DNA of 64,000 nt, taken from the NCBI GenBank assembly GCA_041651155.1, contig JBAZJU010000001.1, positions 91,932 to 155,931 on the forward strand, given 5' to 3'. Source of the stretch: Patescibacteria group bacterium (lineage in GTDB: Bacteria > Patescibacteriota > Patescibacteriia > CAIXNZ01). The notes beneath the pieces were generated by a model that made no database searches, was not told the DNA's origin, and saw only the letters and a program-made list of their open reading frames with translations. Shown piece after piece: positions 15,067 to 64,000 of this stretch. The position numbers and the translations under genes are program-made. Every line of letters begins with the position of its first letter. The stretch's first letter is position 1.

Positions 15067-15165
15067 TTTTTTTTAGAAAATATATAAGAACCCTGTTTCG
15101 CTAGAAGCAGGGTTTTTTGGTATAATAAGGTTAAATAACAAATGACAAAAATCAAATAACAAACC

Positions 15166-15203
15166 TTTGTTTGCTGTAGCAAACTACGGTTTGCGAAGGC
15201 AAA
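15166..15203 (+). repeat. Triple-palindrome element, copy B (gtttgc-tgta-gcaaac-tacg-gtttgc-gaag-gcaaa)
   Basis: Near-identical to copy C. It is preceded by A/C-rich AAATAACAAA-type repeats at 15131-15165. Confidence 0.6.
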
Positions 15204-29985: not shown

Positions 29986-30160
29986 TGTTTCGTTTTTATT
30001 TTAAAAATTTTATTAAATAGCTCGTCATTTTAGTGGCGTGCCATTCGAAGCGCAGTAAAAAGATTTTAACTTGCCCTTCTTCGCTTATTCTTTGTTATTC
30101 TCTTAGCTAAAATCTTAAAGTTAATAAAGCTACGAAGGGCATTCTTCGCTGCGCGAAGAA

Positions 30161-30549
30161 TGGAGATGGCGGGAATTGAACCCGCGTCTAGAAAGCCTTT
30201 TAAAATACTTCTACAAGCTTATTTTAGATTAAAATTACGCCTTAAGATAATAATCTAAACAAAAATCTTAGGGCCTGCCTTAAATTTTTAGCTTAATAAC
30301 TTAAGGCTAAATTATTGAGCGAGCCTGAATTTATGGCACCCAATACCTTTTATCAGGCATCAAAGGCGTGGATGGTTGCTGTTTTAGTTAAACTGCAACT
30401 GACGCAAGGTTAAAAGCAAAAGCTGCTTTAACATTGCTTAATAAGTTTTTTGCACTTATTAGATTTCTATTTTTAGTTTTACGAGATTAAATAGCATGCT
30501 CGGCTTGCGATATTTTTAAAAGATCTTCCTATCGAGGCCTGTCATCCCC
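30161..30549 (-). ncRNA. ssrA: tmRNA (SsrA)
   Basis: On the - strand the 5' end is GGGGAUGACAGGCCUCGAU. The 3' end GCGGGUUCAAUUCCCGCCAUCUCCA gives the T-arm and an acceptor pairing with the 5' GGGGAUG. A 9-bp terminator hairpin (30141-30160) follows. smpB is the next gene upstream, with a TTACAAT-repeat promoter region at 30550-30630. Confidence 0.8.
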
Positions 30550-30630: not shown

Positions 30631-31083
30631 TTATCTGAATCTAGTTTTTAGGGCTCTTTGAACGCTTCGTTTTTCTTCTCTTTCTTTAATTGATCTGCGT
30701 TTATCAAAGAGTTTTTTTCCTTTGGCTAAGGCTAGCTCTAATTTGATTTTCTTATGCTTAGTATACAATGAAAGCGGGATTAAGGTCAAGCCTATTTGCT
30801 GTAATCTTACAGTTAAAAAGTGAATTTCTTTTTTATTTAGTAATAATTTCCTTGAGCGCGTAGGATCATAGTTTGGTAATGGTCCTGCCATTTTATAGGC
30901 TGGCACATTGGCATTGATTAAATATAGTTCGTTTTGATGCAGAGTCACATAAGCGCCTTGTAAGCTGGCATGGCCAGCTCTGATTGATTTTACTTCTTGC
31001 CCTGTTAAAACTAAGCCAGCCTCGAAAGTATCCAGGATTTGGAAATCAAATTTAGCTCGTTTGTTAAGGGTTAAGACTGTCAT
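30631..31083 (-). CDS. smpB: SsrA-binding protein
   Basis: KFDFQILDTFEAGLVLTGQEVKSIRAG...LLLNKKEI: a full-length SmpB. Confidence 0.9.
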   Translation of the reverse strand: MTVLTLNKRAKFDFQILDTFEAGLVLTGQEVKSIRAGHASLQGAYVTLHQNELYLINANVPAYKMAGPLPNYDPTRSRKLLLNKKEIHFLTVRLQQIGLTLIPLSLYTKHKKIKLELALAKGKKLFDKRRSIKEREEKRSVQRALKTRFR

Positions 31084-45113: not shown

Positions 45114-46470
45114 AATTTACAACTCAAATAAAACAATGAAGAAACGCGACCTTCTCAAACAAATTAATAATTTGAAAAAAACAATTAAGCCTGATTCAGC
45201 CTGGCAAAAGGCAAATCGGGAGATTTTGCTGTCTCAAATCAAATCCCAGACCAGCGCAGAATTTTCTTATAGCCACAAAATAATGCTGCAGAATTTATTT
45301 CTGGCTGTTTATAAGCCGGTTGGCAGCATGATTTTAATTTGCAGCGTTTTATTCGGCGCCTGGATTGCCAGCGTGGGGGCGACTAAAAACAGCCAGCCGG
45401 GCGATTTATTATACGGCTTGAAATTAACCGCAGAAAGAATGCAGGTTAATTTGACTATGAATGATGAAAAACGTACTAATTTAGAAATCGCTTTTGCTGA
45501 AAGAAGGTTAGATGAAATCAAGCAGACTACTGCCAAAGACGGTTCAAACAAAAACAAGAAGAATCTGGAAGTAACCCTGAAAAATTTTCAGGAAAGCATA
45601 AATAATGTCAAAAGCAATCTGGCCAAATTAGAAGCGACTGATAAGCAGGCTGCTTTGAAAGTTGCTGATTTAATTGATGAAAAGACCAAGTCTTATGTCG
45701 GGATATTAAAAGATCAACAAGATCAAAATCCGCAATTTGTGGCGAGTGAAAACGCTGAACAGGCTATTTCAGATTCCAAAGCAACAGGCAATAAAGCTTT
45801 AAGCGTGATTTTGGAAGAGTTTGAAGCCGGCAATAGCGGCTTGAAAGTTGATGATTTAAGGCAAAAAATTAATACCAGAATTGATGATTTGGATAAAAAC
45901 ATAGAATCAGCCAAAAGTGATATCCCCCTGATTATTGAGAATAAGAAAATAGCTGATGAAGCGGCCGCTGCCAAAGCTCTGGCGGATAAAGAAGCTGCCA
46001 AAAAAGCCGAGGAAGAAGCCGCCGCTAAGGTTTTGGCGGATAAAGAAGCCTTGGCGAAAACGGAGCTAAGCTCCGACGCTTCGGAGCTTAGCTCCGTTCA
46101 GGAAGTTGCTAATACCAATACTAATACATCACCAGAACCGGTTAAAGAAGCCCAGCCAGAATTACAGAACACTAATAGTTCAGCTGAAATCAAGCAAGAT
46201 GAGCAAATAGTTAGCCAGCCTGAAGAGGTTTTGCCAACGATTGATGAGATTAAAAATAAGCCTGCAGAAGCCGCAGCCTTATTGGTCAGAGCGCGTGATT
46301 ATGTAAAAAGCGGTTCTGTGAGCCAGGCTTTTGATCTGGTAAAACAGGCTGATGACATTATGACTTTGGTCAATAAAGTGATTAAGGCAAATAGTGTTTA
46401 TTTAGAAGCACCGGAAGAAGTGAAGGTAGGTGAACCGGTTGATGTAATGACGAACCTTCGTTTGCAGTAG
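45094..46470 (+). CDS. Putative anti-sigma factor (single-pass membrane, coiled-coil, Ala/Lys/Glu-rich)
   Basis: It overlaps the sigma gene by 20 nt, suggesting translational coupling. A TM helix lies at about residue 76-96. The periplasmic part is helical and low-complexity. Confidence 0.45.
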   Translation: MKLIKNKIYNSNKTMKKRDLLKQINNLKKTIKPDSAWQKANREILLSQIKSQTSAEFSYSHKIMLQNLFLAVYKPVGSMILICSVLFGAWIASVGATKNSQPGDLLYGLKLTAERMQVNLTMNDEKRTNLEIAFAERRLDEIKQTTAKDGSNKNKKNLEVTLKNFQESINNVKSNLAKLEATDKQAALKVADLIDEKTKSYVGILKDQQDQNPQFVASENAEQAISDSKATGNKALSVILEEFEAGNSGLKVDDLRQKINTRIDDLDKNIESAKSDIPLIIENKKIADEAAAAKALADKEAAKKAEEEAAAKVLADKEALAKTELSSDASELSSVQEVANTNTNTSPEPVKEAQPELQNTNSSAEIKQDEQIVSQPEEVLPTIDEIKNKPAEAAALLVRARDYVKSGSVSQAFDLVKQADDIMTLVNKVIKANSVYLEAPEEVKVGEPVDVMTNLRLQ

Positions 46471-46492
46471 CAAACTACGGTTTGCGAAGGCA
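46455..46492 (+). repeat. Triple-palindrome element, copy C, overlapping the stop codon of the 45094 gene
   Basis: ccttcgtttgcagtagcaaactacggtttgcgaagg, with an outer ccttcg/cgaagg stem. It is followed by A/C-rich repeats at 46493-46660. Confidence 0.6.
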
Positions 46493-46667
46493 AATGACAA
46501 AGCATCAATAACAAAATAAATTCAAATAATTAAATTTAAATAACAAAACTTGAATAACAAAAAAATAATCAATGACAAAATCTAGATAACCAAAAAATAA
46601 GAAATAAATAAAAATTTCCGCCTCTGGCGGAAAATAATAAAACAAAAATAAAAATTAAAGTAAAAAT

Positions 46668-47458: not shown

Positions 47459-50400
47459 ATGATTAAGAAAATTTTTACTGTTGGCGTGGTAGTATTGACC
47501 ATTTTTTGGGCTGTCGGTCTAGCAGCATTTGTTCCAACCGCTCAGGCTACAACTTTTAGCTCTGGCGATTTGATCAAAGCTTCTTTACCAGCAGTTTATT
47601 ACTACGGTGCTGACGGCAAAAGGTATGTGTTCCCAAACGAACCAACATACAAAACCTGGTATGCTGACTTCTCCAGCGTGAAAACTATCACTGACGGAGA
47701 ATTAGCCACCATTCAAATCGGCGGCAATGTCACTAACAAACCAGGCGTTAAAATGGTGAAAATCACCACTGATCCAAAAGTATACGCTGTGGCTGCAAAT
47801 GGCACATTGAGGTGGGTAACCACTGAATCACTTGCTGCTTCTTTATACGGTTCTAACTGGGGAGCAATGATTCTTGATGTGTCTGATGCTTTCTTTGTTA
47901 ATTACTCTATTGGCGCTCAAATCAGCAATGTTTCTGATTATTCTCCATCTGCTGCAACTGCTGCTGCTCAATCAATCAATGTTGATAAGGGCTTAGCAGG
48001 CGCAACAACAACTGGCGGTAATTTAAATGTTTCTTTAGCATCTGATACACCAGCTGCTTCTACAGTTGCTGGCGGTGCTGCTGCTAATATGTCAAAGATC
48101 ATTTTAGCTACTGGTTCCGCAGCTGTTAAAGTTAAATCTTTATACATCACTCGTTCAGGCTTAAGCGCAAACGATGATGTTGAAAATGTTAAATTAATCA
48201 ATGTTGCTGGCGCTACTGTTGGCGATGTTGGTTCATTTGGTTCAAACAGCAAAGCATTAATTTCTTTTGTTCCATCATTAGAAATTGCTGCTAATACTTC
48301 AGTCTCATATTATGTCCGTGCTAGTATCAGATTAGGCGCTCCTGCTGGCAACACGGTTGCTTTGGGCGTTGCATTAAATACTGATGTAGTATTGGAAGCA
48401 GGTACTGTTAGCGGTGCATTCCCAGTCGTTGGCAACTACATGTCAATTGTAGCTTTAGCTAACATTGGCAGTGCTACTGTTGGCCAAGATGCAGCAGTTG
48501 TCGATACTATGCCAGATGCTGGCGCAAAAAGAGTTCAGGTCTCTGAATTTTACGTCATGGCTGGTGCAAATGAAGATTTGACTATTGAAGCTATGAGTTT
48601 AATTGAAGCTGGTTCAGCAAATACTGCTGATTCAGCTAATATTGAATTATACAGTTTGACAGAAGGTAGAACATTGGGCACTGCTGCTTCATGGGATGCA
48701 AATTCTCGTGTTACTGTTGGTAGCATGAATGTTGTTATTCCAAGAGGTGGTAAACACATTTTCCAGGTTTATGCTGATATCGTAAGCGGTTCAGGCAACG
48801 TTATTGATGTTGATTTAACTGATGGTACTGATGTTTTAGTAACTGTTAAGGGTAATACCTATGGTTTTTATCTTTCTCCAATAGTTGCTGTGACTCCTCC
48901 ATTAAACTGGGATGGTCAAGGTATTCCAGGAGTAGGTGGTCAAACCGTAGGCGCTGGTTTATTAAATGTTACTAAATCAACTTCTTCTCCAGCTACTGGT
49001 AATATTGCTCGCGCTTCTGATCAGGCAATTGCAACTTATGATTATGAAGTACGAGGTGAATCTATTAAGATTACTTCAACTATGGTTACAATTACAGAAG
49101 GTGCTGCATTTAATAATGTTGTTCCAAACTGGAATAGAGTTGCTAATGTGAAATTAGTTGATGAAAACGGTTTAGTTGTTGCGGGCCCAAAGAATTTAAC
49201 AAATGTATCTGTCGGCGCTGCCGGTGGTGTTACAACTGTTACTTTCAATGAAACTTATGTTGTACCAACTGGTACTCATAAATACACTGTTAAAGTTGAT
49301 GTTTTGAGCAATGCTCCAGCTGGCGCAACAGCTACTTTGGTAGCTAGTTTAACTCCAAGCGCTGATATTACAGCAACTGGGGTTACAACTCGTGAAAGTG
49401 TAGTTCCAACGCCTGCTGTTGCTGTCGCTGGCAATGGTGAGACTATCTTGGGTGTAGCATTAACTGTTACCAATTTAACTCAACCAGCTGCTAGATCAAT
49501 TGCTGTTGGTACTCAGAATTTTGTCTGGGCAACTACTTCATTAGATGCAACTGCTTCTGGTGAAGATGTTCGTGTTTCATCTGTTACAGTTTTGGATACT
49601 TTAGGTGTTGGTAATACTGATGATATGACTGCTTTGCAGAATCTTTCAATCTGGGCAGATTTAACATCAGCTAGTTCTACTCGTGGTGATGCTTATGAAA
49701 CAAAGGTTTCTAATAATGAGCAGCCAACACTTGCTACTACTAAAGCAATTAACTTAACACAAGTTATCACTGTTCCAAAAGGAACTTATGTTAAGATTGC
49801 TGTTGTTGGTAATTTATCAACCTTAGCATTTGTTACAGATACTCACCAGATTAGTATTGCTGCGCCTATAACAGCAACTGGTAAATCAACAGGCAATGCT
49901 CCTGTTATCCCAGCTATTATTACTTTGGGACAGGTAATGCTTGTATCTGCTTCTGGTACTTTAACTGCGTCATTAGATGCTTCTACTCCATTAGCTAATA
50001 TTGTAGTTAGTGGTGCACAAAAGGTTACTGTTGCTGCTTTCAAATTAACAGCTGATAATATTGAAGCTATTGAACTTGATGATCTTTTGGTTAATGATGT
50101 TGCGGCAATTGCTACAAATCCAGTTGCATCAAATTGGTACTTGTATGCAAATAGTCGCGCTGATGGCGGTTCAATTGCTGATCCGGTTGCTGTAGCTGCT
50201 GGCGGTTTTGCGCCACAATTCATTTTAGCTGATAATACAATTGTTGTTCCATCTAATAGCAGTGTTGTCTTGACTCTTAAAGCAGACATCGCCCCTGTTG
50301 ATGGCGCTACTGTAATTAATGGTGATGATTTAATCCCAGAAATTACTGCAGCTGCAAGCATAAATGCTACAGGCGTGTCTTCTGGTGTCCCAGCCACCAT

Positions 50401-50956
50401 CTTTAATGGTCTTGGCTGGTTCCCAAAAACTGCTGCTACAGATTTGGCATTTGCTTCAAAACCAACTATCAGCCTAAATGCTTCTTCTCCAAGCGGTGCC
50501 TTAGTGCCAAGCGCTAATACTTTAGTAGCCATCTTTAATATTGCTGCTGATTCAGCTGATGATATTTCCTTTGATGACGCTGGAAGCGCAGGCACAAAAT
50601 TAGTAGTTACTATGGCTGAAGCTTGTACTGGTGCTGGTGGCGCTACAAATATGATTTTGAAAGACGAAGGTGGCACAGTTTTATCTACCGCAACAGAAGC
50701 TGCTGATGCATGTACTGTTGGCAATAAGACATTTGAAGTCTGGACTAACCCATTAGTTATTGCTAAAGGTACCACCAAGAAAGTATATGTCTATGGTGTT
50801 ACTACTAGTGCAACAACTGCTGGTGATAATTTACAGGCTTCTATTACAGATGCTGCTGCTGGCAATGTTACTTGGGGTATTAATGGTGCAGGTGCTTTTG
50901 CAACTGCTGCCATTACTGCTCGTGGTTCAATTTATGCCAATGCACTTTCTAGATAA
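47459..50956 (+). CDS. Large secreted surface (S-layer-like) protein, 1165 aa, with the N-terminal shared ~125-aa domain
   Basis: A signal peptide (AFVPTAQA), then GDLIKASLPAVYYYGADGKRYVFPN...LRWVTTESLAASLYGSNW. A/T/S/G/V-rich with few Cys. Paralogous to 54421. Confidence 0.8.
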   Translation: MIKKIFTVGVVVLTIFWAVGLAAFVPTAQATTFSSGDLIKASLPAVYYYGADGKRYVFPNEPTYKTWYADFSSVKTITDGELATIQIGGNVTNKPGVKMVKITTDPKVYAVAANGTLRWVTTESLAASLYGSNWGAMILDVSDAFFVNYSIGAQISNVSDYSPSAATAAAQSINVDKGLAGATTTGGNLNVSLASDTPAASTVAGGAAANMSKIILATGSAAVKVKSLYITRSGLSANDDVENVKLINVAGATVGDVGSFGSNSKALISFVPSLEIAANTSVSYYVRASIRLGAPAGNTVALGVALNTDVVLEAGTVSGAFPVVGNYMSIVALANIGSATVGQDAAVVDTMPDAGAKRVQVSEFYVMAGANEDLTIEAMSLIEAGSANTADSANIELYSLTEGRTLGTAASWDANSRVTVGSMNVVIPRGGKHIFQVYADIVSGSGNVIDVDLTDGTDVLVTVKGNTYGFYLSPIVAVTPPLNWDGQGIPGVGGQTVGAGLLNVTKSTSSPATGNIARASDQAIATYDYEVRGESIKITSTMVTITEGAAFNNVVPNWNRVANVKLVDENGLVVAGPKNLTNVSVGAAGGVTTVTFNETYVVPTGTHKYTVKVDVLSNAPAGATATLVASLTPSADITATGVTTRESVVPTPAVAVAGNGETILGVALTVTNLTQPAARSIAVGTQNFVWATTSLDATASGEDVRVSSVTVLDTLGVGNTDDMTALQNLSIWADLTSASSTRGDAYETKVSNNEQPTLATTKAINLTQVITVPKGTYVKIAVVGNLSTLAFVTDTHQISIAAPITATGKSTGNAPVIPAIITLGQVMLVSASGTLTASLDASTPLANIVVSGAQKVTVAAFKLTADNIEAIELDDLLVNDVAAIATNPVASNWYLYANSRADGGSIADPVAVAAGGFAPQFILADNTIVVPSNSSVVLTLKADIAPVDGATVINGDDLIPEITAAASINATGVSSGVPATIFNGLGWFPKTAATDLAFASKPTISLNASSPSGALVPSANTLVAIFNIAADSADDISFDDAGSAGTKLVVTMAEACTGAGGATNMILKDEGGTVLSTATEAADACTVGNKTFEVWTNPLVIAKGTTKKVYVYGVTTSATTAGDNLQASITDAAAGNVTWGINGAGAFATAAITARGSIYANALSR

Positions 50957-51044: not shown

Positions 51045-51259
51045 TGGAAGAATGGTGGTTTGGGAGGAATTTATCAACCTCCCCCAATCCCCCTCCTTTT
51101 CTAAGGAGGGGGTATGGAGGTTATCATGACCTAAGGTGCAGGGCTTTGGGTTTTGTTTTTTGGGGAAGATCGTGGAGGGAGTGGGACGGTTGATTTGTTT
51201 TGTTTAGGGATTTATGGTATTATAAAGGGAGCAATTATTTAATATTCAATTTAAAAAAT

Positions 51260-51517
51260 ATGAAAGAAAAAAATAAATTACAATTTAATATTATTTTTAG
51301 GCCTGAAGAAGAAGGTGGATTTACTGCAATAGTTCCGTCTTTGCCAGGTTGTATTACTTACGGCAAAGATTTAAAAGAAGCTAAAAAAATGGCGATTGAT
51401 GCAATTTATGGCTATATTGAATCAGTAAAAAAACATAAAGAAGAAATACAGTCAGATGAGGAAAGTTTTATTAGTTTAATTAGGCTTCCTCAAAAGCACT
51501 CTAGACTTTATGCCTAA
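51260..51517 (+). CDS. hicB: HicB family antitoxin (UPF0150 N-domain)
   Basis: EEGGFTAIVPSLPGCITYGKDLKEAKKMAIDAI. The ORF-track start at 51200 lies inside the conserved promoter repeat, so the real start is 51260. Confidence 0.65.
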   Translation: MKEKNKLQFNIIFRPEEEGGFTAIVPSLPGCITYGKDLKEAKKMAIDAIYGYIESVKKHKEEIQSDEESFISLIRLPQKHSRLYA

Positions 51518-51734
51518 ATTGCCATCATTAACTCCAAAGAAACTTTTACGAGTATTGGAAAAATGCGGGTTTGTAACAGACCATATAGCCGGCAGCCACT
51601 ATATCCTTTTTCAATCCGCTTCAAATAAAAGAATTACATTGCCATTCCATTGTAAAGATTTGCCAAAAGGTACCCTCCACTCTATTTTAAAGGCAGCCGG
51701 AATTGAAATAACAGATTTGAAAAAATTAAAATAA
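51510..51734 (+). CDS. hicA: HicA family mRNA interferase toxin
   Basis: LLRVLEKCGF...GSHYILF...LPFHCKDLPKGTLHSILKAAGI. It overlaps hicB by 8 nt. Confidence 0.7.
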   Translation: MPKLPSLTPKKLLRVLEKCGFVTDHIAGSHYILFQSASNKRITLPFHCKDLPKGTLHSILKAAGIEITDLKKLK

Positions 51735-51948
51735 CTCGTCTCGGCTCGCCTCGCGAAGCGGGCTTCGCTGGACATAGATATCGTTTTTGTCCCTTGAGTG
51801 CCTTCGCCGAAGTCGGATGAAAAACACAAATCTCGCCATTTTTTAAAGGGCGTTTTTTGTTTTGCTCTGTAACACATTTGGTGCAGGGCTTTGGTTTTTA
51901 CGATAAAATTAAGGTCGGAAACCCCATAAATTTGGGTTTTATGCCGTA

Positions 51949-52014
51949 TTGACTTTTGGCAGAAAAAGAAGTAAAATGAAAGTAGTTTCAATAAAAATGA
52001 AAGTAGTTTCAATT
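51949..52014 (+). promoter_or_regulatory. Promoter TTGACT-N17-TAAAAT with two 17-nt direct repeats (ATGAAAGTAGTTTCAAT x2) as a candidate operator of the MNT-HEPN pair
   Basis: The -35 is at 51949-51954, the -10 at 51972-51977. The direct repeats are at 51976-51992 and 51998-52014. Confidence 0.5.
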
Positions 52015-52016
52015 TT

Positions 52017-52547
52017 ATGAATATTAAATTGACCATTCTCAATAAGAAAGTATTTAATTTCTTGGCTGATTGGCCTGAAAAACAGTTTTTTTCTAAGGAA
52101 ATCTCCGACAGATTGGGGATATCTTTGGGTGGCGCCCATAACAGCCTCAAGGCTCTGCTAAAGGCAGGCGTGGTTGTTTTTGAGCAAAAAGGGAATATGA
52201 AGTTTTTTAAAATTAACTTTAGCAGCCCTTTGTTTAAACAATTGCGCTCGGCAGGCATTGTGGAGAGCCTTTTGCCTTTGGTTAAGAAAATAAAAAATCA
52301 CTGCCTCAATGTGATTTTATTCGGCTCCGCGGCCAGGGGCGAACAGACTGCCAAAAGCGATATTGATATTTTTATATTAACCAATAATCCGTTGGAAATA
52401 AGAAAATTACTGCCAGCCAAAATTAACCGACTGCTTCTTAAGGCCATAATTAAAAAACCGAATGAGTGGAGCGAAATGGAAATTAAGGAACCGGAGTTTT
52501 TTAGGGAAATAAAAAACGGGATTAAATTATATGAATCAAGATTTTAA
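52017..52547 (+). CDS. Nucleotidyltransferase (MNT, minimal NTase) with an N-terminal winged-helix; antitoxin-type partner of HEPN
   Basis: ILFGSAARGEQTAKSDIDIF matches the GS-x9-DxD NTase motif. Confidence 0.7.
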   Translation: MNIKLTILNKKVFNFLADWPEKQFFSKEISDRLGISLGGAHNSLKALLKAGVVVFEQKGNMKFFKINFSSPLFKQLRSAGIVESLLPLVKKIKNHCLNVILFGSAARGEQTAKSDIDIFILTNNPLEIRKLLPAKINRLLLKAIIKKPNEWSEMEIKEPEFFREIKNGIKLYESRF

Positions 52548-52968
52548 TGATTGCCTGGACAAGGGCAAGATAAAAATATTTTCCAGGGGGAAGTTTGTTG
52601 CCCCTAAGGAAATCAGATTGGCTGAGGAAGACTTGAAGATTGCCTCGGCAAGCTTTAGTGACGGCAATTTTCGCTGGTGCGTGATTCAGACGTATTATTC
52701 TATGTTTCATTCAGCGAGAGCCTTATTGTATTATCAAAATTATCGGGAGCATAGCCATTATTGCCTTATTCAGGCAATCAGAGCATTGTATGTTGGAAAC
52801 AAATTATTGGATTTGTCACTGGTTGAAGCAATGGCCGAAGCGAAAAATCTGAGGGAAGCCGCGGATTATTACGGAGATTATAGCCAAATTAACGCGGAAA
52901 AATTATTGGAACATGCCAAGAATTTTTTAAAAGCGGCAAAGGATATTATAAAAAATGGTACTTTATAG
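52531..52968 (+). CDS. HEPN domain protein (toxin-type partner of MNT)
   Basis: Helical; FHSARALLYYQ and LREAADYYGDY fit the Rx4-6H-type HEPN motif region. It overlaps the MNT gene by 17 nt. Confidence 0.65.
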   Translation: MNQDFNDCLDKGKIKIFSRGKFVAPKEIRLAEEDLKIASASFSDGNFRWCVIQTYYSMFHSARALLYYQNYREHSHYCLIQAIRALYVGNKLLDLSLVEAMAEAKNLREAADYYGDYSQINAEKLLEHAKNFLKAAKDIIKNGTL

Positions 52969-53238
52969 CGGACTTCAGTCCGCGAATGACCCCATTACCT
53001 TACGGGGACTTCCACCGTCGCTCTGTGAGTTATGGCGGACAAGAAAGTCCCCTGTAATGATTTTTCTTTGTTAAGGTCCTCTGTAATGATTTCTCTTTAT
53101 TTTTATGATAAAATTAAGGTGGAAAACCCCATAAATTTGGTTTAAGGAGGGGGTGTTTACAGGAGTTTTTTATTTGTTTTGTTTAGGGATTTATGGTATT
53201 ATGAAAGGAGCAATTATTTAATATTTTATTTAAAAAAT

Positions 53239-53508
53239 ATGAAAGAACAATCCTGCCTGCCGGCAGGCAGGTTAAAAATTTCAAAATTTGGCAGGCAATT
53301 GCCTATTGTTATTGAAAAAGGGGAAGATGGTTTTTATATTGTAGAATGCCCGCTTTTTGACGGTTGTTTTACACAGGGTAAAACAATTGATGAGGCGCTT
53401 AGAAATATTAAAGAAGTCATATCTTTGATTTTGGCAGAAAAAGACGCCAGAAATACTTTGAAGGAATATAAATCAACAGAATTTAGTTTGCATACCATTA
53501 CCGTTTAA
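53239..53508 (+). CDS. HicB-like antitoxin, second copy
   Basis: EDGFYIVECPLFDGCFTQGKTIDEALRNIKEVI. The ~80-nt upstream region (53164-53241) is a repeat of 51185-51262. Confidence 0.6.
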   Translation: MKEQSCLPAGRLKISKFGRQLPIVIEKGEDGFYIVECPLFDGCFTQGKTIDEALRNIKEVISLILAEKDARNTLKEYKSTEFSLHTITV

Positions 53509-53511
53509 TTT

Positions 53512-53703
53512 ATGACCCGCTTACCCATTATTTCCGGCAGGAAATTGATTAAAGTTCTTAATAAGGTTGGTTATGAATCTATCAGGCATCAAAGGCGTGG
53601 ATGGTTGCTGTTACTGATTATAAAGTTATTGACCGATCATTATTATTAAAGATATTGCGCGATGCAGAATTATCCGCAGATGATTTTATGAAGTTGATGA
53701 ATT
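53512..53703 (+). pseudogene. hicA-like gene, frameshifted; contains a 33-nt segment identical to part of the tmRNA gene
   Basis: Frame 1 encodes MTRLPIISGRKLIKVLNKVGYESIRHQ. Frame 3 continues KAWMVAVTDYKVIDRSLLLKILRDAELSADDFMKLMN, which aligns to the HicA C-terminus. The segment 53580-53612 equals 30350-30382. Confidence 0.55.
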
Positions 53704-53761
53704 AATATTTGAATATATATATTTACAGACCGCCTGGCCTTTCCGGGTGGTTTTGTTTTTT

Positions 53762-53795
53762 GCCCTGCACCAGTCGCTTCTCTCCGGTGCAGGGC
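53762..53795 (+). repeat. REP-like perfect hairpin gccctgcacc-N14-ggtgcagggc upstream of the transposase; solo half-copies occur at 51135 and 51890
   Basis: A 10-bp perfect inverted repeat. ggtgcagggcttt recurs three times in the island. Confidence 0.55.
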
Positions 53796-53846
53796 TTTAT
53801 ATTTTGGAAATTGAATGGTAAAATTAAGGTGGGGAAAAATAAAAAT

Positions 53847-54395
53847 ATGAATGAATTATTTAAAAATAAATATCGTACAGATTCCGTTCGTTTAAAAGAA
53901 TGGGATTATTCTTGGCCGGGTTTATATTATGTAACAATTTGTACCAAGGATCGTTTTTGTTGTTTAGGGGATGTAAAAAATGGTTTGGTTTATTTATCGG
54001 AAATTGGGAAAATCGTGTTTGAAGAATGGTTAAATACGCCAAAGATCAGACCGAATGTGGCGTTGGATGATTTTATTATAATGCCGAATCATATTCATGG
54101 AATTATAGAAATTAAAGAAATTGGGGATGTTGTAGAGACGCATTGCAATGCGTCTCTACAGAAACCCACATTCGGCCCGCAACGCAATAATTTGGCCTCA
54201 ATAATTCGTGGTTTTAAAGGGGTTGCCAAGAAAAGAATAAATCAAAAATTTGGAGAAAATTATTTTGCCTGGCAATCTGGCTATTACGAACACATTGTCC
54301 GGGACGAAGATGATTATGCCAGAATTAAAGAATATATTGCCTTAAATCCGATCAGATGGGAACTTGACAGAAATAATCCAAAAAATAGATCCTAA
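53847..54395 (+). mobile_element. IS200/IS605-family Y1 (HUH) transposase, RAYT-like
   Basis: The HUH motif PNHIHGIIEI and the catalytic Tyr region QSGYYEHIVRDEDDYARIKEYIALNPIRW. The ORF track extends it to 53709. No room exists for a right-end hairpin before the next gene. Confidence 0.7.
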
Positions 54396-54420
54396 AATAT
54401 TAATTATAAATTTTAAAATT

Positions 54421-56397
54421 ATGTCAAAACGAATTTTCACAATCGGAATTGTGGCTATGACCATATTGTGGTCTATTGGCTTGTCTGCTTTTACACCAAG
54501 CGCGCAGGCAGCCACAATTAATTCAGGCGATTTAATTAAGGCTTCCACGCCTGCGGTTTATTATTATGCCAATGACGGCAAACGCTATGTTTTTCCCAAT
54601 GAAAAAACATTTAAAACCTGGTATGCTGATTTTTCCAGTGTGAAAATAATTACAGATGCAGAATTGTCTGCTATTTCTATTGGCGGCAACGTTACTTACA
54701 GACCCGGAGTTAAAATGGTAAAAATCACGACCGATCCCAAAGTCTATGCTGTGGCTAGCAATGGGACATTGCGCTGGATAACAACAGCCTCTTTGGCCAC
54801 GCAATTATATGGCGCAAATTGGGCGACAATGGTTGATGATGTGCCTGATTCATTTTATGTGAATTATAATGTTGGTTCGCCAATTAATAATCTGACTGAT
54901 TATAATCCTGCAGCCACAACCGCAGCTTCCCCTTCAATTAATGCTGATAAAAGCTTGATTATGCCGACTGTTGGTTCAGTTTTGACAGTTTCTCTGGCAC
55001 CTGATACACCGGCTGCTGGTACTGTGCCTGCTGGTACGACTGTTAATTTTACTAAGATTATTTTTAGCGCGAGTAATTCAGCAGTCAGCATTAATTCAAT
55101 CTATGTAACGCGTTTTGGCTTGAGTACAAATAATGATGTAACTAATATTCAGTTTGTTAATACCAGTAATGTGGCGATTAGCAGTATTGCGAGTTTAGGT
55201 TCTGATAGCAAAGCCTTAGTTACATTTAGCCCTGCTTTAATTGTTAATCCAAATAGTCCTGTGAGCGTATATATCAGGGCAAACATTAGCCAAACAATCT
55301 CAAGTGGTAATACTATAGGTTTGGGTATTAATTCAGCCAGTGACATTAAATTGGCTCCAGGCACAATTAATGGCATCTTTCCAATGCTAGGAAATTATCT
55401 GGGCAGCAGCTCTTCTGCCAATATTTCAGGTTTAACCCCGCCGGAAGGAATTTTAATTGCTGGCAGAAGTAAACAGGGCGTAGCTTCGTTTAAAGTCCAG
55501 GCAGGCCAGGCAGAAGATATGGATTTAAATAGCGTCACAATCACTGATACAGGCACTGGCAAAGTAGCTAATACCTGGTATTTATATTCAAGCAAAAGAA
55601 ATGACGGCATTTCTATCAGCGAACCGGTGGGAACTGCGATTATGGACTCAGTGAATAAAAATGCCAGATTTATTTTGCCTACCAATACGATAATTATACC
55701 TGCCAGCCAAAGTGTTACTTTGACAGTTGCAGTTGATGCTGTGTTAGTTGATGGGGTGACAGTGCAAAATGGCGATACGCTTCACGCAATTGTAGCGGCT
55801 GGAACTGATATTGTGGCCACAGGCAAGGCTTCTGGCCAGCAAATAAACGGCAGCGCCGTACTTGACTCTAAAATATATTATATCTTAGCCTCTTACCCTT
55901 ATTTCAGCCTGGATGCTGCTTCGCCAAAAGGAGCCTTAGTGCCTGGAGCCAATACCTTGCTGGCTATTTATGATGTGACAGCTGACTCGGCTGATGAGGT
56001 GGACTTTTTAAACGCAGGGACAAATACTTCTGGCGTGGCTAATAAGTTAAGGGTTGATATCGCGCACAATTGTACTGCCGGCCTTGGTTTGGGGCTCACT
56101 TTGAAAGATGAAGCTGGCAATGTGCTGGACACTCAGGCAGTTGATGTGTGTAATAGCGCCAGCGCAACTTTTACCTTTGGCAATCCTAATAATTTGGCAA
56201 TTGCAGCCGGCGCCACAAAAAAATTATATATTTACGCTGATACTCAAGGCGCGACCAGCGCAGGGGATAGCATTCAGCTTTATTTAAGCGATTCAAATCC
56301 GGCAAATGTTGATTTCGCGATAAATGGAGCAGGTAATTATCAATTTGCCCAGTTTATTTTCAGAAGCAATATTTATAGCAATCCTTTGGCGAGATAA
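54421..56397 (+). CDS. Secreted surface protein, paralog of 47459, with the N-terminal shared domain
   Basis: A signal peptide (AFTPSAQA), then GDLIKASTPAVYYYANDGKRYVFPN.... It is collinear with the 47459 N-terminus and C-terminus (...YSNPLAR versus ...YANALSR). The ORF track starts at 54364. Confidence 0.8.
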   Translation: MSKRIFTIGIVAMTILWSIGLSAFTPSAQAATINSGDLIKASTPAVYYYANDGKRYVFPNEKTFKTWYADFSSVKIITDAELSAISIGGNVTYRPGVKMVKITTDPKVYAVASNGTLRWITTASLATQLYGANWATMVDDVPDSFYVNYNVGSPINNLTDYNPAATTAASPSINADKSLIMPTVGSVLTVSLAPDTPAAGTVPAGTTVNFTKIIFSASNSAVSINSIYVTRFGLSTNNDVTNIQFVNTSNVAISSIASLGSDSKALVTFSPALIVNPNSPVSVYIRANISQTISSGNTIGLGINSASDIKLAPGTINGIFPMLGNYLGSSSSANISGLTPPEGILIAGRSKQGVASFKVQAGQAEDMDLNSVTITDTGTGKVANTWYLYSSKRNDGISISEPVGTAIMDSVNKNARFILPTNTIIIPASQSVTLTVAVDAVLVDGVTVQNGDTLHAIVAAGTDIVATGKASGQQINGSAVLDSKIYYILASYPYFSLDAASPKGALVPGANTLLAIYDVTADSADEVDFLNAGTNTSGVANKLRVDIAHNCTAGLGLGLTLKDEAGNVLDTQAVDVCNSASATFTFGNPNNLAIAAGATKKLYIYADTQGATSAGDSIQLYLSDSNPANVDFAINGAGNYQFAQFIFRSNIYSNPLAR

Positions 56398-56632: not shown

Positions 56633-58267
56633 ATGCGTAAAATCATTTTCTTATTTTTGATTTCATTAATTTTAGTTGTGCCTCAAGCTAAGGCATTTCA
56701 GTCCAATGCTATTGTTAATAATGGCGCGCCTTATACGACTTTTTACCGCGGTACTTTTGATGATTTGGTCATGGATTTCAGCTTAATTACTCTAAATGCC
56801 GATACGGTTAAGGCAATTTCTTTAAAAAATTTAGGCACTTCCAGCTACTTGCGCGATATAACATATATGAAATTGTGGGCTGATGAAGGGCCGCTTGGGT
56901 TCCAGGGCATGGGCATTGACCGCGAAATCGGGACTCTGAGCTATTCAACGACATACTTGTCTTGGTCAATTGAAAACCTTAACGAAATAATCAATACAAG
57001 TGAAAGATTTTTTATCTCAGTGGAAACTTATTCCAGTTTGAGTGCTTCAACCACCATTCATATGCAGATTCCTATTTTAACGGATAATAACAATAATGGC
57101 AGCTATGATGCCGGCGACTTTGGCATTTTTATGGATTCTGGCAATAATGGACCGACTGATGTGAACATTGATAATGCCAATACACAAGTAACCAGCACCT
57201 CGTCAGTTGATAGCTTGACGCCAAAAGTGATTTTAGCAAATTTGAATGATGGCGCGATTTTAACAAATGATAATTTTATTATCAACGGTTTGGTGCGTGA
57301 TCAGGGCAATACTTATCTGCAAACATTCCAGATAATTATTGATGATCAGGCAATCAGCATTGATAATTACGATCAGTTTAACTATACCTGGAATTATAAT
57401 TGGCAGAATATCAGCGATGGAAAACATACAGTGAGTGTTTTGGCGCGCGATGGCTGGGGCAATACTACCCAGACCAATCCATTAACGATTACTGTGAATA
57501 AGCAGCTATTTTCAGTTGCAAATTCAGCAGCGACAATTGATAAGTCAGGGATTAAAAATGACGGTTTGGATAAGGCCACGGTCACTGTAATTATCAAAGA
57601 TCAAAACAATCTGCCAATAGCGAATCGTCAGATAACAGTGGAAACGAGTTCGGATGTGATTATTTCCAATCCGACTAATAATTCTGATGCAAGCGGGAAA
57701 ATTGTTTTTGAAGTAAGATCCACCGCTTTAGGCCTGAAAACAATAGCAGTTAAGGTTGCTGATACGCTTTTGCAGACTTTAACTTTAAACGTTAATACGG
57801 GAATTCAGCCTGCTTTTGGCCTTAATTTTGGGGATTTAATCAAAGCCTCAACTCCGGCTGTTTATTATTACGGGGCTGATGGCAAAAGATATGTTTTTCC
57901 CAATTTAAAAACATATTTGACCTGGTATAATGATTTTTCTGGAGTTAAAGCAATTACTGATGAACAGCTCGGACAAATTACAATCGGCGGGAATGTGACA
58001 TATCGTCCGGGAGTTAAACTTGTTAAAATTACTACTGATCCAAAAGTTTACGCCATAGACAGCCATGGAACTTTGCGCTGGATTACCTCTGAGCAACTGG
58101 CTATCCAGCTGTATGGCGCTAAATGGAATACACTGGTTGAGGATGTCTCAGATGCTTTTTTTGTTAATTACTTGACGGGAAACCAGATAAATTCTTTGAG
58201 TGATTTTAGTCCGGTTGATGTTAAAAATGCGGCTGGTACGATTAATATTGATAAGGGGTTATTATAG
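56633..58267 (+). CDS. Secreted protein with bacterial Ig-like (Big_1-type) domains and the C-terminal shared domain
   Basis: A signal peptide. KATVTVIIKDQNNLPIANRQITVETSS...GKIVFEVRSTALG is Big-like. The C-terminus reads GDLIKASTPAVYYYGADGKRYVFPN.... Confidence 0.6.
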   Translation: MRKIIFLFLISLILVVPQAKAFQSNAIVNNGAPYTTFYRGTFDDLVMDFSLITLNADTVKAISLKNLGTSSYLRDITYMKLWADEGPLGFQGMGIDREIGTLSYSTTYLSWSIENLNEIINTSERFFISVETYSSLSASTTIHMQIPILTDNNNNGSYDAGDFGIFMDSGNNGPTDVNIDNANTQVTSTSSVDSLTPKVILANLNDGAILTNDNFIINGLVRDQGNTYLQTFQIIIDDQAISIDNYDQFNYTWNYNWQNISDGKHTVSVLARDGWGNTTQTNPLTITVNKQLFSVANSAATIDKSGIKNDGLDKATVTVIIKDQNNLPIANRQITVETSSDVIISNPTNNSDASGKIVFEVRSTALGLKTIAVKVADTLLQTLTLNVNTGIQPAFGLNFGDLIKASTPAVYYYGADGKRYVFPNLKTYLTWYNDFSGVKAITDEQLGQITIGGNVTYRPGVKLVKITTDPKVYAIDSHGTLRWITSEQLAIQLYGAKWNTLVEDVSDAFFVNYLTGNQINSLSDFSPVDVKNAAGTINIDKGLL

Positions 58268-61492: not shown

Positions 61493-62539
61493 ATGAAAAA
61501 AGTAGCAATCATTATTGTAAATTATAACGGTTTAGAATACTTATCAGCTTGTTTGACGAGTTTATTGAGTTTGGATTATCCAAAAGAAGATTATAAAGTT
61601 TTTTTTGTTGATAATGCCTCAATAGACAGTTCGGTTGATTTTGTTAGAAATAATTTTCCGCAGGCTGAAATTATTATTAATAATGAAAATTTAGGTTTTG
61701 CCGAAGGTAATAATATTGCCATAAAAAAGGCTCTGGCTGAAAACTTTGACTTTGTTCTTTTGATTAATCAGGATACGATTTCTGAACCTGATTTTTTAAA
61801 AAAGTTAGTTGAAGAAACAGCCAAGGCAGAAGATATTGGAGCGGTTCAGCCGCGCATCATGTTGTATCCCGAAAAAGATAAGGTTAATTCTTTGGGTAAT
61901 TCAATCCATTATTTAGGTTTTGGTTTTTCCAGCGGCGGTTATCAGAAATTTGCCGGCAATTTAGAGCTAAAAGAAATCGCCTATGCCAGCGGAGCCGCGG
62001 TTTTAATTAAAACAAATGTGCTGAAAAAAATCGGGCTTTTTGACCCTGATTTTTTTATGTACCATGAAGATTTAGATTTGGGCTGGCGCATGCGCTTGGC
62101 AGGATATAAAATTTTAGTGGTGCCTCAAGCTGTTATTTATCATAAATATGAATTTAGCAAAAGCATAAAGAAGTATTATTTTATGGAACGCAATCGCTTT
62201 ATTTGCCTTTTGGAAAATTATAAGCCGGGAACTTTGATTTTAATTTTTCCTGCCTGGCTGGCAATGGAAATCGGTTTGTTTTTGTTTTCACTTAAGTCAG
62301 GGTTTTGGAAAGAGAAATTGAGGGCTTATGGGTATTTTTTTAAATTTTCTGCGTGGCAGAAAATTGGAAGGGTAAGAAGGGAAAGAAGGGTAAAAAGGGT
62401 AAAAGGGGATAAGGAAATTGTGGAATTATTTACAGGCAAGATTGAATTTCAGGAATTAGATAGCTGGCTTTTAAATAAAGTTGTAAATCCCATCTTTAAT
62501 TTGTATTGGCAAGTAATTAAAAGTTTGATAATTTGGTAG
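61493..62539 (+). CDS. glycosyltransferase family 2
   Basis: VAIIIVNYNGLEYL...FFVDNAS... DxD-like region, a GT-A fold and C-terminal TM helices. Confidence 0.8.
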   Translation: MKKVAIIIVNYNGLEYLSACLTSLLSLDYPKEDYKVFFVDNASIDSSVDFVRNNFPQAEIIINNENLGFAEGNNIAIKKALAENFDFVLLINQDTISEPDFLKKLVEETAKAEDIGAVQPRIMLYPEKDKVNSLGNSIHYLGFGFSSGGYQKFAGNLELKEIAYASGAAVLIKTNVLKKIGLFDPDFFMYHEDLDLGWRMRLAGYKILVVPQAVIYHKYEFSKSIKKYYFMERNRFICLLENYKPGTLILIFPAWLAMEIGLFLFSLKSGFWKEKLRAYGYFFKFSAWQKIGRVRRERRVKRVKGDKEIVELFTGKIEFQELDSWLLNKVVNPIFNLYWQVIKSLIIW

Positions 62540-62632
62540 TAGATACAAATTTACAAATTAACTATAAATTATTACAAATATTCAGAAACCAATTCGTAGT
62601 TATATGTATCTGATTTGTAGATTTGTAACAAT
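62506..62632. repeat. 127-bp direct repeat, copy 1 (covers the GT2 stop codon and intergenic region); copy 2 at 62936-63062
   Basis: The copies differ at two positions. A diverged third remnant of the GT2 3' end (encoding NLYWRVVKLFIFW*) lies at 62640-62700. Confidence 0.75.
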
Positions 62633-62684
62633 AAAAAAATCGCCAATCCAGTTTTTAACTTGTATTGGCGAGTGGTGAAGCTTT

Positions 62685-62935: not shown

Positions 62936-63062
62936 TTGGCAAGTAATTAAAAGTTTGATAATTTGGTAGTAGATACAAATTTACAAATTAACTACAAATT
63001 ATTACAAATATTCAGAAACCAATTCGTAGTTATATGTATCTGATTTGTATATTTGTAACAAT
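62936..63062. repeat. 127-bp direct repeat, copy 2, ending immediately before the ATG of the downstream GT4 gene
   Basis: See copy 1. Confidence 0.75.
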
Positions 63063-64000
63063 ATGAAAATAGCCCAAGTCGTCTGCAGATTTAAACCATA
63101 CAAAGGCGGCATCAGCAATGTAGCTTATGACCAGTCTTTGGGTTTAGCTAAATTAGGACATGAAGTTACGGTTTTTACTCCTTTATATAATGTTAAAGAT
63201 AATAATTTTACTGCGCCTGAATTTAAAATAACACGATTAATCCCCTGGGGAAAAATTGGCAATGGCGCGTTTTTGCCTCAGCTTTTTTGGCAATTGAAAA
63301 ATTTTGACATTGTTCATTTGCATTACCCATTTTTTGGCGGGGCTGAAATTGTCTGGCTCTTAAAGCTGGTTAAAGGTGCAAAAATGAAATTAGTAATTAA
63401 TTATCAGATGGATGTAATTGGCGGCATATTCATGAAACCTTTTTTTAAATTCCACACCAGATTTATTATGCCGCACATTATTAAAGCAGCTGATAAAGTC
63501 ATTGTCTCTTCCATGGATTATGCGCAAAATTCAAATATAAAAGAGCAAGTTGAGAAGAATCCCGCAAAATTTATTGAATTGCCGCCAAGTGTTGATTTGG
63601 AAAGATTTATTCCAGCGCCAAAAACCAAAGATCTTTTGTATAAATATGGTATTCACCCGGAATTTGACCGCATTTTGCTTTTTGTCGGCGCATTAGATAA
63701 AGCCCACTATTTTAAAGGCATTGATTTTTTAATCAATTCATTTAATGTTTTAGATTATTCTGGCAGCCAAGATGCAATCTATAGGATTAAACTTTTAATT
63801 GTTGGCGAGGGCAATTTAAAGCCAAAATATCAAGAAGAGGTCGCTAAAGCAGGAGAGCAAGGTAAAATTATTTTTGCTGATCCAGTTTCAGATTTAGATC
63901 TGCCCAAGTATTATAATTTGGCAGATGTAGTAATCTTACCTTCTATTGACCGTTCAGAAGCATTTGGCATAACCTTGATTGAAGCCATGGCTTGCGCCAA
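63063..64000 (+). CDS. Glycosyltransferase family 4 (5' partial, runs off the window); not in the ORF track because no stop codon lies within the window
   Basis: MKIAQVVCRFKPYKGGISNVAYDQSLGLAKLGHEVTVFTP... and a later SEAFGITLIEAMACA EX7E-type motif. Confidence 0.7.
   Translation, partial: MKIAQVVCRFKPYKGGISNVAYDQSLGLAKLGHEVTVFTPLYNVKDNNFTAPEFKITRLIPWGKIGNGAFLPQLFWQLKNFDIVHLHYPFFGGAEIVWLLKLVKGAKMKLVINYQMDVIGGIFMKPFFKFHTRFIMPHIIKAADKVIVSSMDYAQNSNIKEQVEKNPAKFIELPPSVDLERFIPAPKTKDLLYKYGIHPEFDRILLFVGALDKAHYFKGIDFLINSFNVLDYSGSQDAIYRIKLLIVGEGNLKPKYQEEVAKAGEQGKIIFADPVSDLDLPKYYNLADVVILPSIDRSEAFGITLIEAMACA

Follow-up and report, generated by a model that had tools for sequence, protein, structure and literature searches.

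The window, a 64,000-nucleotide stretch of contig JBAZJU010000001.1 from a Patescibacteria group bacterium, carries a toxin–antitoxin cluster at 51.2–53.7 kb that consists of an intact hicB1-hicA1 pair, an MNT/HEPN pair, and a hicB2 gene followed by a broken hicA2 gene. The hicB1-hicA1 pair (51260–51734, + strand), which lies 2 kb upstream of the second, paralogous pair, retains the reference architecture. The nucleotidyltransferase (MNT) and HEPN genes are encoded in overlapping frames (52017–52968) between the two hicBA loci, and together these genes constitute a small toxin–antitoxin or defence cluster. The hicB2 gene (53239–53508, + strand), which directly adjoins hicA2 as its partner, encodes an intact antitoxin of 89 amino acids that matches Pfam family PF15919 and is annotated by NCBI as 'HicB family antitoxin'. 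Its product is 61–64% identical to the HicB partners of two intact HicA proteins (P0001 and P0002) and 70–78% identical to the best HicB matches in the databases.

Several repeated elements are distributed through this cluster. An 82-nt repeat (93% identity between copies) precedes both hicB genes, at 51190–51271 and 53169–53250. A 44-nt repeat that includes the extended −10-like motif TGATAAAAT precedes the MNT/HEPN pair (51895–51938), hicB2 (53100–53143) and a gene for an IS200-like Y1 transposase (53810–53853). Both repeats are probably promoter modules shared by members of the cluster. HicB2 also carries an N-terminal insertion of nine amino acids relative to its homologues, and the corresponding DNA holds a perfect, GC-rich 20-nt palindrome (CCTGCCTGCCGGCAGGCAGG, 53252–53271) that is unique in this AT-rich window. 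It may have arisen through a second small insertion, or it may be a hairpin element. The Y1 transposase gene (53847–54395), directly downstream of hicA2, includes a perfect 22-nt palindrome of its own (GAGACGCATTGCAATGCGTCTC, 54135–54156), which encodes the peptide ..ETHCNASLQ.. within the protein.

To define the damage in hicA2 (53512–53705, + strand), we used as a reference set five intact HicA homologues of 73–74 amino acids (P0001, P0002 and the hicA products of loci L087, L088 and L089). Alignment with these proteins divides the gene into three parts. A 5′ remnant (53512–53579, + strand; MTRLPIISGRKLIKVLNKVGYE-) retains codons 1–22 and two nucleotides of codon 23. It is followed by a foreign patch of 33 nt (53580–53612, + strand), and then by a 3′ remnant that is read in the +2 frame and corresponds to codons 44–73 (53613–53705, + strand; TDYKVIDRSLLLKILRDAELSADDFMKLMN, then a stop codon). 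The joined remnants match two 73-amino-acid proteins of family PF07927 with E values of 2.5e-13 and 4.9e-12 and identities of 54–55%. This similarity, together with the position of hicB upstream of hicA, is typical of type II HicAB toxin–antitoxin systems. Taken singly, the hicA2 fragments yield no Pfam match. One member of the reference set, the intact 74-amino-acid hicA of L087 (positions 1449–1680; ENA ERZ534010 NODE_6919), follows a hicB gene and had been missed by the gene caller; short toxin genes are easily overlooked in such collections.

The central ~20 codons of hicA2 are gone, with up to 61 nt removed and up to 33 nt put in their place. Relative to the 73-amino-acid homologues the net change is −28 nt, and thus the 3′ part of the gene is read in the +2 frame. 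Consequently, hicA2 offers no uninterrupted HicA open reading frame of ~60–75 amino acids, as the frame shifts within 53580–53612. All five homologues share the run G-Y-R-E-V/T-R-Q-R-G-S-H-I-R-L-x-C-x-x-R-K-S-V/I-T-V/I-P-D/N-Y, and the corresponding G-Y-R-E-V-R-Q-R-G-S-H-I-R-L-x-C-x-x-R-K-S-V-T-V-P-D-Y is missing from hicA2. This segment holds the Gly-x-His catalytic motif, in which the His of G-S-H is the HicA catalytic residue (PMC11594946). Specifically, the R-G-S-H...R-K-S signature present in five of five homologues is replaced by the patch. A first-pass annotation of this DNA had correctly placed the 33 nt at the point where the hicA2 frame breaks, but had described them as aligning to the HicA catalytic core, whereas they have in fact taken its place.

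Judged from these alignments, hicA2 is a pseudogene whose toxin is predicted to have been killed by the combined loss of its catalytic core and reading frame. No second lesion is seen in the remainder of the gene when it is aligned to the homologues, and the undamaged state of these parts points to a single, recent event. On the same grounds, hicB2 is now apparently without a working toxin partner. The locus thereby resembles other HicAB modules with inactivated toxins, in that a dead hicA2 accompanies an intact hicB2 within a larger toxin–antitoxin cluster (hicBA1 and MNT/HEPN). It differs from them in the nature of the lesion, which is a patch copied from another gene, the tmRNA gene ssrA, rather than a point mutation, a simple deletion or the insertion of an IS element.

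The patch sequence (TATCAGGCATCAAAGGCGTGGATGGTTGCTGTT) occurs twice in the window and nowhere else within it, with 33 of 33 positions identical between 30351–30383 and 53580–53612. Both copies are read on the + strand, in direct orientation, and are spaced 23,229 nt apart. A match of this length exceeds what chance would supply: the 33-mer has 0 matches in 100 dinucleotide shuffles, and the longest dispersed exact repeat in each of 20 Markov-simulated windows spans only 15–18 nt. The exact match and its improbability had both been claimed in the first-pass annotation, and both claims stand, as do the hicA2 coordinates; the ssrA copy, which had been placed at 30350–30382, is shifted by one position. 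Sensitive local alignment of the two loci reveals no similarity beyond the 33-mer, such that both edges are sharp and the flanks are unrelated. Likewise, we found no gapped or extended similarity between ssrA and hicA2 and no further ectopic patches in the hicBA2 locus. The patch is the sole isolated, sharp-edged and completely identical stretch shared by unrelated genes in this window, and the remaining long repeats are diverged paralogous sequences.

Other repeats in the window are of several kinds. A 49-nt hairpin repeat (GCAAACCGTAGTTTGC; 92% identity, 28 nt of it exact) is found at 15155–15203 and 46446–46494, each time at the 3′ end of a gene; the two genes are unrelated and separated by 31 kb. 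A large open reading frame of 2383 amino acids (3582–10733) is composed of many diverged repeat modules of ~420–480 nt and reaches a GC content of 48%, compared with ~35% elsewhere. Related N-terminal modules recur in large surface proteins encoded at 47459–50956, 54364–56397 and 56633–58267. Finally, a 139-nt direct repeat (96% identity) occupies 62506–62644 and 62936–63074, with its copies 430 nt apart.

One copy of the 33-mer resides in a full-length, intact ssrA gene (30161–30549, − strand), as identified by both ARAGORN and the Rfam model RF00023. The covariance model matches over model positions 1–374 with a score of 145 bits, compared with a gathering score of 47 bits, and the gene has the tRNA-like ends and tag open reading frame expected of a tmRNA. 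ARAGORN predicts the tag peptide AKNLLSNVKAAFAFNLASVAV. Immediately upstream on the same strand is smpB (30631–31083, − strand), whose product matches PF01668 (E = 7.8e-53), is named 'SsrA-binding protein SmpB' by NCBI and has its best identities, 64–68%, with proteins from Falkowbacteria and Uhrbacteria metagenome-assembled genomes. The tag ends in ...ASVAV, and those of relatives end in ...PVAV, ...FAAV or ...PVAA (gene region 30158–30549). The 3′ CCA of the tmRNA is not encoded in the window (..CUCCAUUC), and several relatives encode CCACCA.

The donor segment (30351–30383, − strand) corresponds to tmRNA nucleotides 167–199, as established by the exact match, the Rfam model and the tmRNAs of relatives. 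The tag stop codon occupies nucleotides 160–162 and the 33-mer begins 4 nt later. It contributes the 3′ strand to the stop-codon helix and the 5′ strand to the stem of PK2, the pseudoknot that follows. The first-pass annotation had assigned this copy to an ssrA gene transcribed from the − strand, just 3′ of the tag stop and in pseudoknot territory, and each of these placements agrees with the gene models. On its own strand, the hicA2 copy is antisense to tmRNA.

Comparison with other tmRNA genes, taken from beside smpB homologues, reveals which copy is the original. The homologous segment in relatives is identical to the 33-mer at 11–26 of the 33 positions. In the nearest relative (L002) the segment is 26/33 identical (79%) compared with 73% for the whole gene, and in another (L035) it is 22/33 identical (67%) compared with 58%. 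In the closer relatives, therefore, the identity of the segment is comparable to that of the gene in which it is embedded. Furthermore, nucleotides of the 33-mer pair with partners located outside it. A CCUUU sequence within the segment pairs with AAAGG (30346–30350) beyond its edge, where most relatives carry CCGCC and GGCGG. Similarly, GUUGC outside the segment pairs with GCAAC inside, and the corresponding sequences in L002 are GCUGC and GCAGC. Because the 33-mer covaries with these external partners, it is no recent import into ssrA, and the hicA2 copy is the derived one. These comparisons indicate that the 33-mer is native to ssrA and that sequence was transferred from ssrA to hicA2. The reverse possibility, in which hicA2 donated the sequence to ssrA, is rejected on the basis of tmRNA homology and this covariation.

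Because the source is a metagenome-assembled Patescibacteria genome, the patch might have been created by chimeric reads or mis-assembly, but this explanation is unlikely. The identical sequence is present in an ENA contig of 293,782 bp assembled with MEGAHIT (ERZ27247363 k141_799758; L083, 4050–4082), in which the final 141-mers span the entire patch and both hicA flanks. To our knowledge, de Bruijn assemblers take all of their junction k-mers from reads, and thus both patch junctions must exist in reads. The same proteins (MFA5187849–MFA5187872) are also encoded on an NCBI/JGI contig of 348,259 bp, which on the evidence of protein records only indicates a second assembly. Moreover, the patch is flanked on both sides by hicA sequence and the donor on both sides by ssrA sequence; since the flanks of each copy derive from one gene, no chimeric swap has taken place. 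Over 51194–53201, the window is matched with 100% identity by a Logan contig of run SRR8542065, which ends 380 nt before the patch.

Genes for tmRNAs are classic integration sites for genomic islands, and direct repeats 23,229 nt apart with one copy in a tmRNA gene could in principle be the attL and attR sites of a 23-kb element inserted in ssrA, or the hicA2 copy could be a leftover att site. The resemblance to ssrA-integrated islands and prophages ends with this direct repeat. No integrase or recombinase is found among the open reading frames of 30.4–53.6 kb, and the interval shows uniform composition and none of the cargo of an island, encoding instead an AI-2E transporter, a glycosyltransferase/Wzy/Wzz polysaccharide cluster, a sigma factor and a large surface protein. 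Within ssrA, the repeat occupies an internal position rather than the 3′ end, and no displaced piece of ssrA is seen next to the hicA2 copy. In addition, co-evolved tmRNA sequence is present on both sides of the ssrA copy and hicA sequence on both sides of the other, and thus there are no hybrid junctions. The annotation of the interval and its junctions largely refute an att origin, which we regard as extremely improbable. A connection between the patch and the neighbouring Y1 transposase was also considered, and no link was seen; the 33-mer has neither hairpin ends nor the structure of an element.

The ends of the patch provide a possible reason for the use of this particular segment. When translated in the correct hicA frame, the left end of the patch reads S-I-R-H-Q where homologues carry E-V/T-R-Q-R, and the right end reads V-A-V where they carry V/I-T-V/I. 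We scored every 33-mer of the window, on both strands (n = 127,936), in the position of the patch. At the protein level, 0.9% of these 33-mers are as HicA-like as the patch at the left end, 0.7% at the right end and 0.0086% at both, and the joint frequency is 0.11% when nucleotide matches to the codons of the homologues are counted instead, in a test that was devised after seeing the data and in which homologues of only 54–55% identity stand in for the parental hicA2 gene.

This pattern suggests that the ssrA segment was used owing to its resemblance to hicA2 at both ends. Microhomology shared with ancestral hicA2 may account for the outer ~10–13 nt of the left side and ~9 nt of the right side, as inferred from homologues of 54–55% identity rather than from the parental gene. 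If the ends were indeed shared, the foreign core of the patch may measure only ~11 nt.

We favour, with a probability of roughly 0.7, the interpretation that the hicA2 lesion is the scar of a single illegitimate-recombination event, in which a short templated patch from ssrA inactivated the gene. In such an event, a fragment of single-stranded DNA derived from ssrA would anneal to hicA2 DNA that was itself transiently single-stranded, using two short and imperfect matches, approximately TATCAGGCA on the left (S-I-R-Q codons) and GTTGCTGTT on the right (V-x-V codons). The fragment would then be built into the nascent strand while the intervening hicA2 sequence was looped out. A two-step, microhomology-mediated template switch is an alternative route that would yield the same product. 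The first-pass annotation had proposed that recombination or gene conversion linked the two loci. An event that carried sequence from ssrA to hicA2 is upheld, whereas our data support a short, illegitimate templated patch rather than gene conversion driven by homology.

The GC skew identifies the + strand as the leading strand over the whole window, and thus both loci have the same replication polarity. This shared polarity fits the direct orientation of the two copies but is no proof of the mechanism. The mutant probably persisted because loss of the toxin was neutral or advantageous. A toxin gene could naturally collect rare inactivating events, and the recovery of one is accordingly plausible.

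A mutation process with these properties has been described in the laboratory. [quoted passage not shown] The hicA2 patch corresponds to this description in several ways. A short ectopic stretch, 33 nt long and thus within the range of 3 to ~100 bp, replaces a short part of an unrelated gene, with a gain of up to 33 nt and a loss of up to 61 nt. The template is traceable elsewhere in the same genome (ssrA, 30351–30383), where it is native and unchanged. The event is visible through a changed selectable function. At the joints, the HicA-like ends of the patch hint at imperfect microhomology. SPDIR is further characterized as driven by single-stranded DNA, independent of RecA and suppressed by RecJ, ExoX and DprA.

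There are also differences between the two cases. The hicA2 patch would be a natural event in the genome of an uncultivated member of the Patescibacteria, whereas SPDIR is known from His+ revertants of Acinetobacter baylyi, and the joints of hicA2 were judged from homologues rather than by hybridization energies with the parental sequence. Measured frequencies of SPDIR come exclusively from A. baylyi, at ~1e-12 to 1e-13 per locus and cell, and the authors of one study point to a lack of reports from natural genomes (10.1101/2024.07.02.601687). Invoking so rare an event is a point against our preferred interpretation. Template switching of the FoSTeS/MMBIR type is likewise comparable, in that it combines a deletion with a short templated insertion whose equally oriented source lies on the same chromosome, tens of kilobases away, although most of its documentation concerns eukaryotes and larger rearrangements. 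SPDIR, replicative template switching and RNA-templated repair give outcomes that are inseparable at this locus.

The last of these routes belongs to a family of explanations in which the patch derives from RNA or from a CRISPR-type process, through capture of reverse-transcribed tmRNA at a break in hicA2 or mis-integration of a protospacer from ssrA. The abundance of tmRNA and the length of the patch, 33 nt being typical of a spacer, are compatible with these ideas. One report assigns bacterial group-II-intron-like reverse transcriptases a role in microhomology-mediated end joining (bioRxiv 10.1101/2022.03.14.484287), which counts in favour of an RNA-derived insertion. However, the event is a replacement with deletion rather than a simple insertion, no reverse transcriptase or cas gene is present among the open reading frames examined (~24–54 kb), and the putative microhomology signature requires no RNA. 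Neither a repeat duplication nor CRISPR-like repeats flank 53580–53612, and no array exists in the window; a CRISPR-type origin is rejected on the lack of flanking repeats. Overall, we consider an origin of this family very unlikely.

The presence of the 33-mer in hicA2 means that any hicB2-hicA2 transcript would carry a perfect complement of part of tmRNA, and this raises the possibility that the patch has a function. According to this explanation, the hicB2-pseudo-hicA2 transcript is a trans-acting antisense RNA that pairs with tmRNA nucleotides 167–199 and thereby lowers trans-translation, or shields tmRNA from the nuclease of the intact hicA1 gene 2 kb away. The duplex of 33 contiguous base pairs has a calculated energy of −63.7 kcal/mol, and the unit appears to be transcribable, with an intact hicB2, promoter-like repeated sequences upstream and a terminator-like hairpin after it. 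This hairpin (53727–53753), which together with its T-run spans 53727–53763 (+ strand) and was found by a consensus scan only, would end the predicted hicB2-hicA2 transcript downstream of the patch. Also compatible with this idea is the nearby intact hicBA1 pair and a report, in agreement with a statement of the first-pass annotation, that HicA of Escherichia coli induces cleavage of tmRNA (PMC11594946). Furthermore, selection for complementarity to tmRNA would also be expected to yield the 33/33 identity observed here, which counts against a mere scar. If this explanation were true, a toxin pseudogene would have turned into an RNA regulator of the substrate of its own toxin family.

Despite these attractions, an antisense function is very improbable. 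The exact 33-mer has no matches in GTDB representative genomes, JGI metagenome contigs or IMG/VR viral contigs, and neither it nor a similar hicA allele was found in any other genome, metagenome or viral contig searched. Thus, there is no sign that the complementarity is conserved, and in those collections this genome alone carries the hicA2 allele, or indeed the exact ssrA segment. Protein searches gave a similar picture. No close relatives of HicA2 or HicB2 occur among 5.8 billion proteins, and no identical protein is on record for the two hicA2 fragment open reading frames or for the predicted 5′-cut hicB2 product of a Logan contig. Look-ups with the HEPN, HicB2 and Y1 transposase proteins returned only the ENA contig identical to the window and a 2-kb Logan contig, and P0007, a relative of HicA1, is encoded among different neighbouring genes.

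The properties of the target and of the locus also argue against this function. The region of tmRNA that would be bound is largely base-paired, and for a bacterium with a small genome, an antisense RNA that blocks trans-translation would probably carry a cost. Trans-encoded antisense RNAs, such as the small RNAs that act as type I antitoxins, likewise have ~20–35 nt of perfect complementarity to an RNA encoded elsewhere, but the complement in hicA2 lies in a disrupted coding sequence. Nothing sets the locus apart from an ordinary fresh pseudogene, and both the position and the content of the patch would be explained by the putative microhomology at its ends. The proposal in the first-pass annotation that the element deliberately carries a segment directed against tmRNA is therefore not supported, given a private allele, a destroyed gene and a position for which microhomology would account. 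If hicA2 was patched by illegitimate recombination, the perfect pairing that any hicB2-hicA2 transcript could form with tmRNA would be a by-product, and the link between the patch and the activity of HicA proteins on tmRNA is most likely a coincidence.

The hicA2 patch probably represents a naturally occurring case of a type of mutation that is known but seldom documented. Almost all measurements of SPDIR-type templated microindels come from a single laboratory reporter system. At the hicA2 locus, the intragenomic donor is unambiguous, the direction of transfer is known, the functional consequence is clear, namely loss of the catalytic core of the toxin, and there is a statistical hint of microhomology at the joints. 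The locus would thus offer a clean example from nature, in a bacterium of the candidate phyla radiation. It also illustrates that a match that appears 'antisense to tmRNA' can arise through the mechanics of mutation alone, which is a caution for sequence-based searches for regulatory RNAs.
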